Source: Eledone cirrhosa
Lineage: Eukaryota
Direction of reading: 5' to 3'
Length of the DNA: 64,000 bases
Assembly (NCBI GenBank): GCA_964016885.1
Contig: OZ024741.1
Location: 334,490,001 to 334,554,000 of the forward strand
Shown here: in pieces, positions 8,436-57,555 of the stretch
How the letters are laid out: each line of letters begins with the position of its first letter
How positions within the stretch are numbered: the stretch's first letter is position 1
The notes under the pieces: model-generated
Told to the model about the DNA's origin: nothing
What the model saw: the letters and a program-made list of their open reading frames with translations, nothing else
The model's database searches: none
Position numbers and translations under genes: made by a program

Positions 8436-8648
8436 TAATAATTGTTTCTCCTTTTGGCAATTATCCCAGTGCATTACTGGCACTTTATTCTATCGACCCC
8501 GTAAGGATGAAAGGCAAAGTTAACATTCGCGGGACTTGAACTCGCCAAGGTTAACTTTGCCTTTCATCCTTACAGGGTCGATAGAATAAAGTACCAGTAA
8601 TGCACTGGGATAATTGCCGGCATTGTGCCAAAAGTAGAAACAATTATT
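8436..8648. mobile_element. Fold-back pair of 5'-truncated MetaSINE-like halves (head-to-head)
   Basis: 8436-8524 is the reverse complement of 8550-8648 apart from an 11-nt deletion and a few mismatches. Both arms share the variant atagaataaag. Confidence 0.8.
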
Positions 8649-8888
8649 AATAAGAGTTGAAATTAATACATAGAAGATTTCACAACTCATCATTTCTTCA
8701 GAGTCAAGTTATGAACTTTCCGGCTGACCCTCGTACACTCATATATATATACACTAGCATAATAGCAATAAGAATAATTTCTTTATTAGCCACACAGGGC
8801 TCAAATTAAGGAAACATTAAAGACGGTACATGATAATATAGTGTGGGGTTTTATGTCAAATAATATTTATAACAGAGAATAATAATAA

Positions 8889-9065
8889 TGTTTCTATTTT
8901 TGGCACAAGACCAGCATTTACCCCAGTACATTACTGGTGCTTTATTTTATCGACCCTGTAAGGATGAAGGGCAAAGATAACATCAGCGGATTTGAAATCA
9001 GAACGTAAAGGGCCACAACTCTATGCTGAAAAGCATGGCGTCTGACGCTCTACTGATACTGCCAA
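8889..9065 (-). mobile_element. MetaSINE-like SINE
   Basis: Reverse-complement core tttatcgaccctgtaaggatgaagggc and head ctctactgatactgcca. Confidence 0.75.
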
Positions 9066-9346
9066 ATGTAGTAATAATATTAATAATAGTAATAATTTCT
9101 TTATTGGCCACAAGGGTCTACATATAGGGGACAATACAAAAAGACAGGGACAAACAGGGGCTACATTAAAATTGAGTAAAAGCAAATTAACAATATCAAT
9201 ATAGGATAATTTATCCCTTGAATATCTTAATATATATATATAATCAAACCTTACTATCCCAAGTATCAAGTAATCTGCTTAATAACGGTCTTATTACTTA
9301 AAACTGGTAAAATTCAAATCTCTCATTCTCTTTCTATATATATATG

Positions 9347-9643
9347 TCATCATCATCATCATCATCACCGTTTTACGTCCGTTCTTCCACGCTAGCATGG
9401 GTTAGACGGGTTATCCTGTTGTGGCCAGTGTCTGGTCGGCTGACCATGCCTTGCTCATACAGGAACTGATTTGGCTTGATTTCTACAGCTGGATGCCCTT
9501 CCTAACACCAACCTCATTTACAGTGAGTGCTGGGTGCTTTTTCGTAGCACCTACACATCTACTTTACAGTGTGGGCTGGGTGCTTTTTTGCCGGGGTACC
9601 TCCACGACCACCTTGCAGTGGGAGGGTTTGGGGGCATTTTGTC
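9347..9643 (-). mobile_element. RTE subfamily A 3' UTR fragment
   Basis: Near-identical to 1457-1750. Confidence 0.9.
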
Positions 9644-9988
9644 TATATATATATATATATATATGTGTATATATATATATATATATATATATATGTATAT
9701 GTATATATATATATATATATATATGTATATGTATATATATATATATATATATATATATATATATATATATGTATATCTATATGTATCTATATATATATGT
9801 ATATGTATATGTATATATATATATCTATATATATATATCTATATGTATCTATATATATATGTATATGTATATATATATATATATATATATATATATATAT
9901 ATATACATATGTATATGTATATATATATATATATATATATATATATATATATATGTAAGAATATTTTCGAAACAGCAAGCGGGTTTGA

Positions 9989-10236
9989 AATTATTATAAA
10001 TGTAAGCTATCGCCATATTTTGACTAAAGAAATTAAAGAAATTATTTAGCCTGATAGTGGGGTTAAGAACCCTCGGAGAAATGGAAAAAGATGAGTATTG
10101 ACGTACATGTATGTACATGTACGTCAATACTCATATTTTTCCATTTCTCCGAGGGTTCTTAACCCCACTATCAGGCTTAATAATTTCTTTAATTTCTTTA
10201 ATCAAAATACGGCGATAGCTTACATTTATAATAATT
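9989..10236. repeat. ~250-bp near-perfect palindrome embedded in (TA)n
   Basis: Centre gacgtacatgtatgtacatgtacgtc (10100-10125). The arms match out to 9989/10236 and the left side extends unpaired to ~9955. Confidence 0.93.
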
Positions 10237-53884: not shown

Positions 53885-54072
53885 TGGATTGGCAGTATTG
53901 GTAGAGGGTCGGACGCCATGCTTTGTAGCATAGAGTTACGGCCCTTTATGATCTGAGTTCAAATCCCGCCGAGGTTAACTTTGTCTCTCATCCTTACGGG
54001 GGTCGATAAAATAAAGTACCAGTAATACACTGAGATAATTGCTGGCCTTGTGCCAAAAGTAGAAACAATTAT
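53885..54072 (+). mobile_element. MetaSINE-like SINE
   Basis: tggcagtattggtagag, gagttcaaatccc, core and ggccttgtgccaaaagtagaaacaatt tail. Further copies lie at ~35875-36090, 53300-53465 (-), 54915-55115 and 59150-59285 (-). Confidence 0.82.
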
Positions 54073-55449
54073 TAACTTAAACTTTTTACATCTTTCTTTT
54101 TCTCCACTCTCTCCTCTCCAGTCCTTTTCTACCTGACTTCAATAGAGAATTCTCATAAAATATGGCTTCTACTTGTTTTCTTTTCATTTTTTATGGGGGT
54201 TTTGTGTATATTCCATATCTTCCTCACTAGAGTATTCAGTTCAGTTTTAGAAAGAAAATTTACAAACATGGCTTCTTTCTCTCTCTTCGCTTGTGCTATA
54301 TATTCTACATTCATCACATTTATTTGTATCAATCTTTATGTTTGCTTCCTTGCCTAATTTCTCACTCAGCCATTTTCAACCACTAGCTTTGTTCCATTTT
54401 AGTCTTATCTTCATATATATTAAAAAAAAGGTATTTTTCTTTCATTTTGTTATATATTTTTTATTTCTTCTATTTCACAAACATTCTATCCAATATTACT
54501 AAATTAATTTGTCCTGCTTCTTTCTTTCTACCAAACTTCCTTATTTCATCACATTTTCTGTTCACATCATTTCTGAAAAGTCTTTATACAAAATTATGCT
54601 GATAAGGGGGAAACCCCATAGAGTGAAATTATATTTTGTGATTTCTAGATAGTTCTCTGATGAAGTGTTGTTATTGCTTTTCTTCAATTTCAGATAATTA
54701 TGACAAACTAGGTTTCTAATTTTCTAAACAAATTTCTATCTTCTAAATAAATATCTTCTTGGTTTACAAAAATAAAATAAAAAAAAATGATTTAGGTTTC
54801 CTGTTTGAAAACATTCTATACTGTAAAATAGTAGAATCATCATTGTCATTATCTTCACCACCACTATCATCAACATCAGCATCACCACCACTGCCACAAC
54901 CACCATCATCATAGGGTGTTGGATTTCAGAATTGTTAGAGCATTGGACAAAACTCTATGCAGTATTTAGTTACAGAACTCTGTACATTCTGGTTTCAAAT
55001 CCTACTGAGGGGTAGATAAAATACAGTAGTACCAGTCATGTACTGGGGGTCAATATAATTAACTTCCCTTTCCCCCACAAAAAATTGCTGGCCTTTTGCA
55101 TTAATTAGAAATTATTATCACCACCATCATCATTGCTTTTACATTTATCTTCCCTTGCTAGTATGTGTTGGACAATACTTTTTTCCGAGACAGGATACTC
55201 TTCCTAATGGCAGCTCTTATCTTTTTCCGTATGGTTTTAAACTATCTTCATATGTTGAAATGCTGAGTGGTGGGATTTTGTTTGTGTATTCATGAACAAA
55301 GTCACTACTTAGTATTAGTATCCATTGTGATGAAAAATATTGGTTTGCTATATAGTGTATGATAAAGGTAATTCAGTCTTGAAAACACTAATTGCAGGAG
55401 TGAGGGACCCCTTGGATCCCTGGTGGCAGAATATAATAAACAACAACAA

Positions 55450-55735
55450 CAGTAGAACTGAGGATCCTCTCATTAAAACACCTAACAAAGCTCCTAGGAC
55501 TGGAAACTCTATCATTAAAACACACAAAGAACTCCCTAAGAGCCCAACTAAACCTGTATATATGTCAACTGTAAAAACAACAACATGATATGACTGGGGA
55601 CTCTATCATTAAAACACACAAAGAACATCCTTAGAGGCCAACTAAACCTGTATATATGTCAGCTGTGATTGGGGACCCTATCATTAAAGCCCACAATGAA
55701 CCTCTTAAGAGGTCAGCTAAACCTACATAGGTGTG
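55450..55735. repeat. Degenerate minisatellite, related in reverse complement to the repeat flanking the LINE at 1310-1455 and 4100-4240
   Basis: Repeated ctctatcattaaaacacacaaagaac...aactaaacctgtata units. Confidence 0.6.
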
Positions 55736-56425
55736 AGTTGTTAATTTTAAGATTTTTCATTGCTATGATACAAACTTAGTAAATCTAACATATGCCAAGT
55801 TAAGTTAAATCTTTACATATATGGAAAGTACATTTTGGAATCTGTCTAAACTATTTCAACTATATTGCTTATATATCATAGTTAAATTTCCACCATACAA
55901 GTTTTAAAGCTTTAGGTAGATTTTTACAATTACACCAGTCTCACTCATTCAGTAGCTCATTTCTCTAAATAAACCTTGGCTCTTCTTCATTGCTCTATTT
56001 CTTGGTCTATCCTATAATTAAGATATTTCTGTGTAGTGTGTGTGTGTGTGCACTGTATGTGTGTGTGTGCACTGTGAGTGTGAGCGTGTGCACTATGTGC
56101 GTGTGTGTGTGCGTGTTCTCACTGTATGTGTGTGTGTGTGTGCAAAGTTTTTTACTATATGTTCTTTCTGTGTAAATGTAAATTTTCAAGATAATCTCTC
56201 CTCTAGTAAAGAGACTATAAACATTTGAATTAAACTAACAAACCTGTTTTGTTTTTTTAGATATTACAGAATATTAAGAGTTAAATAAAAATAATAAAGT
56301 AAAAGGTTTATTAAAATATCTTAAATCGTAATAACTATATCAGATAATGTAGCTTCATGTAAATAAAAACACTGGAAAAACTGAAGAACTGTTATTTACA
56401 TAATCCAAATTTTCTGACTGAGAAT

Positions 56426-56610
56426 ATACACACATTAAAATTCTGTTATAACGAAATTCAGGGTGGGGGCTTATAAAAAAATTTGTTGTAACGAAAAATT
56501 CTTTATAACGAGATCAACCAAATAAATCGAGCGTTTGTTTGTTATTACCTTGGTGAATGAAAAAAATTTGTTATACTGAAAAATTGTTATAACAGAATTT
56601 AACCTGTGTA
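56426..56610. mobile_element. Tigger/pogo-like MITE
   Basis: TIR-like aaattctgttataac / gttataacagaattt, with internal gttataac repeats and TA ends. Confidence 0.55.
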
Positions 56611-57555
56611 TGTATATATATATATATATATATATAAATATGGGCATCCACTGAAGAATTATAAGAGCCCACTTGAATAAGTATCTGTTGATCTTATACA
56701 AGCTTCTATATAATTTGGTATAATTTCACCCAACTTGTAGAAATCTTATAATGAAACGAATCGTCTGGGAAGTGATATATTTGATATATCTCATGAAATG
56801 ATACAGCCAATTTTCCACACAATACAATTAGTTAGCACCCTGAACGTTTAATTAGGAACATACTCAACAAACATTAGGAAATACCTGAGTGAGTTGGAAT
56901 TTGGCTGGAGTATCGCTATTAGCTTTCTCCGATTATGTATTTATATATATATATATTGATCGTTATCAGGTATTTTAATTTTTTTTATTATATTTAATAA
57001 GATACTCTATGAATTATGTAATCTTATATTCAGTACAGATTGTCTCTAGTTTTATGCTTTGCTATATTTTAATGCATGCTTATGTGTGTATGAATATATT
57101 TCATCCACTTTCTTATAATGTATTAAGGCTTGATTTTATTCTCTGAATTCTATCTTGAGCTGTTTTTAGAGACAAGACATGTGTTTGATTTTGTATCATT
57201 CATGACATCCTTTACTTTGAATGTAATTATATATATATATATATATATATATATATATACACACACACACACACACAGTATAAAGAATATTGTGCTCAAG
57301 CACATAGATACTATAGAATAAGTTATAAAATAGAGTGAAGACTTTTAAAAGATGGAATAAAAAGTTACCAGCAGCAGATGGCAAGTTCTTTTTCTGTCTT
57401 TAAGGTCTTCATCCTATTTTATAAGCATCTATGTGCTTGAGCATATCATCCTTTATACTTATATATATAAAGAAGAACTGTTGTTTTTCCTTTAAAATCA
57501 TTCAAATATTTATACACTTTGTCTCTACATATGTTTCTTTATTTTTATTTTTCAG

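Follow-up and report, generated by a model that had tools for sequence, protein, structure and literature searches.

Penelope-like elements (PLEs) of the Hydra clade have been described with respect to their protein motifs, their bias towards (TA)n and their inverted copies (Craig et al. 2021, PMC8557442). The same study lists (TA)n-targeting PLEs for Octopus, and its passages on inverted copies with one-sided tails state that the mechanism is unresolved and leave the origin of the inverted structure open. The architecture itself, i.e. an inverted 5'-truncated copy, a one-sided tail and a (TA)n target, is already a published PLE trait. A published guess for the inverted copies is antisense self-priming (PMC3846280). 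Moreover, it has been reported that a purified PLE cuts and extends both strands and that two internal start sites bracket the tail, and a dimer was predicted (PMC11167929). In the case of L1, twin priming produces deletions or duplications inside the insert, and the lengths of the arms are correlated (10.1101/2024.08.27.596794). Here, we analyse a window of 64,000 nt from contig OZ024741.1 of Eledone cirrhosa (positions 334490001-334554000; genome of 3.0 Gb) that contains many hairpin-forming inverted repeats. Most of these hairpins are probably insertions of Hydra-clade-like Penelope elements and their non-coding passengers in (TA)n, the arms of which were likely made by twin priming on one RNA and then likely joined by host end-joining.

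The reference case is a two-armed insertion of a family that we call A (the family letters A-F and the labels SINE1 and SINE2, for short interspersed nuclear elements, are our own, and L-numbers denote the genomic loci compared). It comprises the following parts:
15021..21204, no strand assigned: two-armed 6.2-kb insertion of a Hydra-like PLE of family A in (TA)n
about 15021-15104: tail
16699-18177, minus strand: piece of open reading frame (ORF) in the tailed arm
18205-19629, plus strand: ORF piece in the tail-less arm, which ends at 21204
near 18179-18200: junction with a 22-nt duplicated segment, the inner ends lying about 50 nt apart

Family A has at least 40 copies of 98-100% identity in the genome. 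The intact copy L043 encodes 737 amino acids with a YRDD motif and the C-terminal motifs VY..YVG..R, so that the family has a single ORF for a reverse transcriptase (RT) with a C-terminal GIY-YIG-type endonuclease. An alignment with seven relatives contains RWR and SDKT, as expected from the RWK/DKT of the Hydra clade, and lacks GxKF/Y. Furthermore, CNCRDRSKC (the CxCX5C linker), CDLC and CKH are present; the absence of CCHH and the similarity to Hydra-1_Obim were judged by eye. Among the named relatives of the main protein, hypothetical proteins of Argonauta hians rank best (38-42%), and Pfam gave no match for the truncated PLE ORFs of the window. A hammerhead core motif with stem II occurs in families A, C and D; the expected stems fold, with weak folding z-scores, and a search of the window with Rfam returned nothing at the gathering threshold, hammerhead included. 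The tail is followed by TA in 28/30 loci of family A, 29/30 of family C and 26/30 of family D, and tandem pseudo-long terminal repeats (pLTRs), an adjacent inverted 5'-truncated copy and a tail at one end were all seen, as in endonuclease-bearing PLEs. The connection with PLEs and (TA)n that had been suggested in a preliminary description of the window is borne out. A subfamily of family A (L115, L124, L126, L128, L134, L140, L261, L268) differs in the sequence upstream of the hammerhead stem, and its members share a 5' limit that lies about 180-187 nt away from the start site; it possibly represents a short non-autonomous RNA.

The preliminary description had listed about 12 separate inverted repeats, and all 12 sites were recovered by self-BLAST with the TA tracts masked. 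The filter used for a census of inverted repeats found 20 in the window and one across five shuffles. The arms are 82.8% identical at 8436-8649 (including a 13-nt deletion), 95.9% at 9990-10235, 97.4% at 10777-11123, 97.7% at 12249-12291, 97.8% at 15166-21174 (self-BLAST; 98.9% arm to arm over 2,983 nt), 90% at 21229-21338, 87.9% at 49381-49471, 93.4% at 51117-51449 and 70% at 57278-57458. Short arms of 29 bp, only 39 bp and 57 bp were located at 10349-10377/10426-10453, 40257-40295/40814-40852 and 43428-43484/43732-43788, respectively. Once the tail is included, TA flanks both sides in 10/12 cases; it is found on one side at 49381 and on neither side at 8436, where the nearest tract is 91 bp off. 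The polarity described earlier, with 5' ends inward and 3' ends outward, holds wherever an ORF, a hammerhead motif or a SINE shows the direction. It had also been stated that one arm is complete and its mirror short. This asymmetry was seen, but the excess consists of a tail (35-173 bp, specific to each family) with a fixed starting point. Sorted by kind, the 12 sites are nine inserts of PLE architecture in (TA)n, two SINE cases that resemble snap-back and one member of a palindromic family like a miniature inverted-repeat transposable element (MITE; the labels MITE, RTE and mariner are used presumptively). Seven of the nine are tied to Hydra-clade PLEs, and for the other two, one of them tRNA-headed, no ORF was found. 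Sites that had not been listed before are present at 29078-29941, 14075-14296 and 49142-50022; the latter two were rejected as fold-backs, since each arm resembles other copies at least as closely as it resembles the opposite arm.

That the palindromes are artefacts of assembly or amplification is barely credible. Reads of four runs, mapped to the reference 18110-19950, contained no read or contig among those listed that bridges the junction 18179-18200, and in a few young copies (L032, L037) the two arms are identical. However, arms differ by 1-30%, the asymmetry is fixed in the sequence of dozens of loci from several families, copies lie on many contigs, and the layout has been published for other animals. 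The family itself was found in all four runs, and two opposite-strand read joints are due to 50-70 bp of the left arm inside the reference.

The PLE inserts have (TA)n flanks and two fixed, family-specific outer ends, one at an internal site and one at the end of a tail 35-170 nt further 3', with one of each per insertion. Among 20 loci selected by their ORF, 17 are two-armed, and each of these 17 has exactly one tailed outer end (p=8e-6 against a coin toss). The tail sits on the long arm in 12 of them and on the short inverted arm in five. Both start sites have TA-like bases, which belong to the tandem unit.

According to the preliminary description, the first-strand cDNA folds back on itself, the hairpin is elongated and the product then rejoins the (TA)n, which may be a general route determined by the host or the target. 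The premise of our test was that a folded-back arm must lie inside the arm that it copies. For family A, the 40 best matches to the tail alone were taken, a sample that is hence unbiased for 5' structure; once L137, which duplicates L136, had been removed and L121/122 and L130/131 had each been counted as one, 37 distinct insertions were left, 31 two-armed and six single-armed. Arm lengths were read by hand on the natural long copies, as earlier pairwise estimates were confounded for palindromic copies. In the 28 insertions whose tail-less arm begins at the fixed start base, this arm is more than 25 nt longer than the tailed arm in 11, shorter in eight and within 25 nt in nine, and the tailed arm measures at most 9 nt in four (L118, L126, L134, L135). 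Family C provides 15 two-armed fixed-start copies among 29 distinct loci: the tail-less arm is longer in nine and equal in six, and the tailed arm is longer in none. By the 25-nt measure, the supposed mirror arm thus exceeds its template in 11/28 and 9/15 cases. As the tail-less and the tailed arm differ in both directions, it is not possible that one of them generally served as the template for the other.

The second line of evidence comes from inserts whose arms do not overlap. In L251 and L255, the inverted piece begins at the end of the tailed arm, which is the textbook layout of twin priming. Two non-palindromic relatives that had escaped the earlier description, lie at about 21563-21705 and 41098-41225:
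21563..21705, no strand assigned: inverted arm of about 66 bp with a partial tail directly attached, without a palindrome (compared with L182 and L257)
41098..41225, no strand assigned: same family, inverted arm of about 95 bp and the last ~37 nt of the tail
The former is probably a twin-priming product with an internal deletion.

First-strand fold-back is contradicted as a general PLE route, because the tail-less arm is so often much longer, because the tail may sit on either the long or the short arm (5/17 short), because the tail-less arm stops at one fixed base and because inverted-arm-plus-tail inserts lack any overlap. As an account of the whole set it is therefore highly unlikely. It survives for SINEs and some symmetric copies. 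Snap-back has been documented for R2 insertions (PMC11371274) and is compatible with 49381-49471, 12249-12319, the SINE1 pairs at 8436 and L153, with L205 and possibly with 15021-21204. In addition, head-to-head pairs of SINE1 are in excess, and the arms of PLE insertions match each other. Several of the 10 head-to-head pairs look like independent neighbours (81-90% arm identity), and SINE cases amount to about 1-2% of copies, mostly outside TA. The idea of a pathway set by the host or the target stands in so far as host repair probably makes the central join, as suggested by microhomology and local duplications. One general target route is not supported: two-armed insertions make up 31/37 in family A and ~1-2% of SINE copies, and the insert at 57277-57459 belongs to a wholly palindromic family.

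The arms of one insertion are closely related. The opposite arm is strictly the closest sequence in 21/29 comparisons, with two ties and six losses, five of which concern short arms. The same holds in 17/18 cases with at least 500 bp shared. Furthermore, private variants are mirrored across the arms of L112 and L069. Thus, both arms go back to a single RNA or a single source locus. At clean junctions, microhomology of 1-6 nt or short local duplications were seen, and the 22-nt insert at 18179-18200 is of the same kind; several junction lengths were inflated by single-nucleotide polymorphisms and left out of the count. Microhomology and local duplications at junctions suggest joining of the polymerase-theta type. 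Junction insertions built from repeated short local copies, up to about 55 nt, were observed in L266, at 18179-18200 and in L254, L262 and L264, and are typical of repeated anneal-and-extend repair.

Taken together, separate starts with both non-overlapping and overlapping products give a genomic pattern that points to twin priming. The GIY-YIG endonuclease would cut both strands of the self-complementary (TA)n, and both ends would offer the same TA primer. Priming may then take place at the internal site from one target end and, on the same RNA, at the tail from the other end; that the internal site comes first is a guess from the tail-only class. If the tail-primed RT halts at the first cDNA, an inverted arm plus tail without a palindrome would result. 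If it displaces the first cDNA and recopies the same RNA, the arms would overlap; strand displacement by the second RT is suggested because overlapping arms exist. A near-perfect hairpin would be expected if the two cDNAs run up to the same point of the RNA, be it the 5' end, a break or a pause site. A shared RNA end is suggested by family C, in which the tail-less inner end lies at 155-175 nt in 10/15 copies and the tailed arm spans 0 to 215, and by L306 of family F, in which the centre of the hairpin is the 5' end of the tRNA head. Finally, host end-joining would likely make the central join.

Several points weigh against twin priming as the source of all hairpins. In family A, near-symmetric copies are more frequent than expected (9/28 vs 3.75, p=0.0015) and arm lengths are correlated (Spearman 0.66), and family C has a symmetric excess as well (p=0.05). 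Snap-back predicts such an excess as well. A one-cDNA hairpin and a two-cDNA join yield the same sequence in symmetric copies, and the common RNA end is inferred. In the 6-kb palindrome 15021-21204, the tailed arm is about 50 nt longer, which fits the earlier fold-back model, and the join of L114 sits at a natural stem-loop; the 6-kb palindrome and other symmetric copies could possibly be snap-back products. Two RNAs of one source locus would also yield matching arms. Moreover, 14/29 loci of family C are single-armed, complex or have another start and were left unscored, L302 of family F has two tailed ends and this family has variable start sites, and the insert 12249..12319 has a tail at neither end and fits snap-back. 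The twin-priming evidence is a genomic signature.

In a mixed scheme, both DNA ends are primed, the internally primed cDNA snaps back and copies itself as far as the start site, which yields the overlap of the tailed arm, and this product is then joined to the short tail cDNA. Such a hybrid is unlikely. It accounts for the excess of symmetric copies, for the slightly longer tail-less arm in 6/9 symmetric family-A copies, for the absence of longer tailed arms in family C (0/15) and for joins at natural hairpins. However, it makes tailed arms longer than tail-less ones impossible, and these were observed in 8/28 family-A insertions and 12/17 ORF-selected loci. Therefore, a two-cDNA route is needed even under the hybrid. 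By contrast, self-priming on an antisense PLE transcript, which was proposed for rotifer Penelope elements and is a published reading of the same architecture (PMC3846280), would build the head-to-head palindrome before integration. It predicts neither one tail per insertion on either arm nor inverted-arm-plus-tail inserts, nor does it predict copy-specific junctions with repair-type insertions, and the chance that it explains the present inserts is very slim.

Besides family A, twin priming would account for most of the smaller PLE-layout inserts of the window:
10776..11215, plus strand: 3' end of family C PLE, symmetric hairpin 10777-11123, hammerhead-like motif at 11018, tail of about 92 bp
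21226..21420, plus strand: 3' end of family B PLE, hairpin 21226-21341 and 79-bp tail
51114..51542, plus strand: 3' end of family D PLE, hairpin 51117-51449 and tail of about 92 bp
10292..10453, minus strand: PLE 3' end, tail 10292-10346, tailed arm of about 76 bp, tail-less arm of 28 bp
12249..12319, plus strand: PLE 3' end with hammerhead core, right arm ending tail-less at TA, mirror arm 28 nt short
40255..41025, plus strand: PLE 3' untranslated region (UTR), tail-less arm of 39 bp, tailed arm of about 557 bp, tail of about 173 bp
43384..43790, minus strand: family E, PLE-type layout with 41-bp tail, tailed arm of about 306 bp and tail-less arm of 57 bp
9955..10236, minus strand: family F, PLE-type layout with 35-bp tail and two arms of about 120 bp

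For five small inserts (10292, 10777, 12249, 21226 and 40257), copies with an adjoining PLE ORF were found. They are L155, L157 and L178-L180 for family C, L059 and L306 for family B, L076 for the 10292 family (ORF C-terminus 200 bp upstream on the same strand), L218 for the 12249 family (tail, then ORF start) and L206 for the family of 40255..41025 (ORF C-terminus upstream). Family D is 77-82% similar to the 3' end of family A and has an identical hammerhead layout; the ORF of L234 was rejected as a link because it belongs to a neighbouring insert. It was also considered that family B spreads as one fixed hairpin unit, which was rejected since the junctions of 30 copies vary and some variants recur in mirror image on the two arms. 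The TA-flanked insert at 29078-29941 has inverted ends of 97 bp and homologues downstream of PLE ORF ends (L042, L264).

Families E and F insert in PLE fashion, but we do not class them as PLEs. In 20 loci of family E (up to 1.5 kb upstream) and in 30 loci of family F, no PLE ORF was found that runs on into the element. The family F insert corresponds to the 3' portion of a 272-bp unit with a tRNA-Ser(GGA)-like gene at its head, which ARAGORN reports with a relaxed score; with default settings, the program gave no match in the window. The unit forms tandem arrays of at least nine units and also occurs as dispersed inverted-plus-tail insertions in (TA)n (L307, L300, L306, L283-L312), with 1,036 candidates at first look. 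No autonomous partner of the unit was found, and it looks like a SINE mobilised by PLE machinery.

Further PLE-like pieces were seen in the window. A 5'-truncated, frameshifted Hydra-like PLE lies at 61899-63320 on the plus strand (about 36-46% like family A), and in its 3' region it is similar to the end of the ORF that precedes family B in L306. An RT piece of a second PLE-like kind lies at 45776-47371 on the minus strand; it has GxKF and a motif similar to DKG and is interrupted at a small palindrome of 52 bp (45815-45866). The region 9335-22130 is a nest of many different retroelement inserts in one degenerate TA field; RTE-type pieces at 9335-9642, 12547-12984 and 13519-14135 likewise sit in TA tracts. 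Outside this nest, an open frame of 792 codons at 1755-4133 on the minus strand belongs to a non-LTR element with RT and PHD domains.

Three of the 12 sites have a different origin:
8436..8649, no strand assigned: head-to-head pair of the tRNA-type SINE1, complete at either 3' end, with the inner ends at SINE positions 81 and 93
49381..49471, no strand assigned: RTE-tailed SINE2 with a 41-bp mirror arm (SINE2 at 49142-49432, minus strand), 2-nt microhomology, then TA
57277..57459, no strand assigned: MITE-like palindromic family of about 200 bp with the same two termini, TA flanks and no tail

The preliminary description had extended fold-back to a SINE outside the PLEs, and this is sometimes true. 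The insert 49381..49471 fits snap-back, and it shares with L205, a further short snap-back, a contained mirror arm, a short loop and microhomology. The pair at 8436..8649 lies outside TA and its arms carry a common minority variant; a near-copy of its layout exists at L153, and both are compatible with snap-back of a SINE. A survey of 289 loci (1.45 Mb, biased towards TA nests) with 297 SINE1 and 167 SINE2 matches yielded 15 adjacent opposite-strand pairs, about five or six of which are symmetric hairpins, and SINE hairpins are rare (~1-2% of copies). Head-to-head pairs of SINE1 outnumber tail-to-tail pairs by 10 vs 2 (p=0.04), and the 3' ends of SINE1 are followed by TA in 0/30 loci. The two SINE cases of the window are likely a separate, rare cDNA snap-back. 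The SINE1 hairpins (8436-8649, L153, L078, L142) turn at SINE positions 78-93, near the tRNA T-arm, and the SINE2 at 49381-49471 turns at the T-loop as well. For the family of 57277-57459, 901 candidates were found; 40 of them were scored and 11 distinct loci viewed, most of them full length. Its members are short and non-coding, have their inverted termini in common and are flanked by TA. It is likely a MITE and not a retro-insertion hairpin.

A few mirrored structures have the opposite geometry. In L202 (2846-3451), L219 (1923-2459) and L033 (about 3224-4245), flanking DNA is mirrored around a central TA tract; the mirror arms of L202 and L219 match nothing else in the fetched loci, and the mirror of L033 takes in a PLE junction. 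These loci suggest that TA-linked fold-back at the DNA level exists at a low rate. A mariner-like element at 29976-30862 with inverted ends of about 100 bp (92%) contains a transposase-like ORF piece (30042-30545) and adjoins TA.

To estimate the scale, 40 evenly spaced 10-kb stretches of contigs C1-C10 were examined, a small sample (400 kb) that is not sorted by family. TA tracts occupy 7.9% of it, and the census filter found 83 inverted repeats and none in its shuffles. Six repeats with TA-filled spacers were removed; in 48 of the remaining 77, a TA tract lies within 12 bp of one end (3.0 expected), and in 34 of these 48 the other end is 25-125 bp from TA, which is the signature of a tail. 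Extrapolation gives about 3.6e5 TA-anchored hairpins genome-wide (bootstrap 2.4-4.9e5), corresponding to 3.3% of bases, and about 2.5e5 hairpins with the tail signature. Arms of at least 95% identity make up 1.25% of the sampled bases. The large-scale production of palindromes that had been predicted is therefore borne out, with a few hundred thousand hairpins estimated from the 400-kb sample.

It has been reported that octopus has an exceptionally high share of near-perfect dsRNA-forming loci and the strongest hyper-editing (PMC5625713); in the repeat analysis as given there, octopus was left out and Penelope was heavily edited in lizard. Provided that the host is an octopod, the hairpins are a concrete candidate source of near-perfect double-stranded RNA (dsRNA) and ADAR hyper-editing in octopus. 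Such hairpins are likely collapsed or mislabelled as MITEs in annotations. Tentatively, programmed twin priming could be the normal integration mode of (TA)n-targeting PLEs, which would have produced a few hundred thousand hairpins, supplied octopus dsRNA and hyper-editing and also mobilised a tRNA-headed, SINE-like RNA; we hold this wider proposal to be somewhat less probable than not. Added here are the countable argument for programmed twin priming, the genome-wide scale and the tRNA-headed passenger. No report tying twin priming to PLE inverted copies, or describing a tRNA-headed element with PLE-type insertion, was found in a literature coverage that excluded older Penelope papers. The young, abundant families give countable rules, i.e. 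one tail per insertion, either arm longer and single-template arms, which are testable in an existing in vitro system.

Palindromic MITEs or foldback DNA transposons are a known kind of element, which 57277-57459 resembles in its whole-family palindrome, identical termini and TA flanks. A frog example has been described (PMC5625713). Family A agrees with Hydra-clade PLEs, including Hydra-1_Obim of Octopus bimaculoides, in the C-terminal GIY-YIG-type endonuclease, RW[K/R], DKT, the CxCX5C linker, CxxC, CxH and a putative hammerhead motif, and also in the (TA)n target, the pLTR tandems, the inverted 5'-truncated copy and the tail at one end (PMC8557442). In contrast to that clade as described, with elements generally below 3 kb and tails of 30-40 bp, the family A unit measures 3.8 kb and its 3' UTR about 1.5 kb, tails range from 35 to 173 bp, and many families occur at very high density (PMC8557442). 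Poseidon PAc of Anolis also shows two RT starts bracketing the tail, an AT-rich target and use of both strands in vitro (Frangieh et al. 2024, PMC11167929). However, PAc belongs to another clade and its starts lack target homology, whereas the starts here have TA-like bases, and the PAc study, in the parts available, does not tie the two starts to two insertion ends or inverted copies (PMC11167929). The R2 snap-back 5' junctions have a short mirror arm within the cDNA, like 49381-49471 and L205 (Zhang et al. 2024, PMC11371274), and a snap-back of this type cannot yield those PLE inserts in which the mirror arm is longer or the tail displaced. L1 twin priming shares with the present insertions the use of two target ends on one RNA, the 5' inversion, the microhomology joins, the internal deletion or duplication and the correlated arm lengths (10.1101/2024.08.27.596794, PMC11702581). 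There, the second start is opportunistic and the duplications are short (median 22 bp), whereas here a fixed site is used in most insertions and overlaps of up to 2-3.5 kb give rise to long palindromes (10.1101/2024.08.27.596794, PMC11702581).

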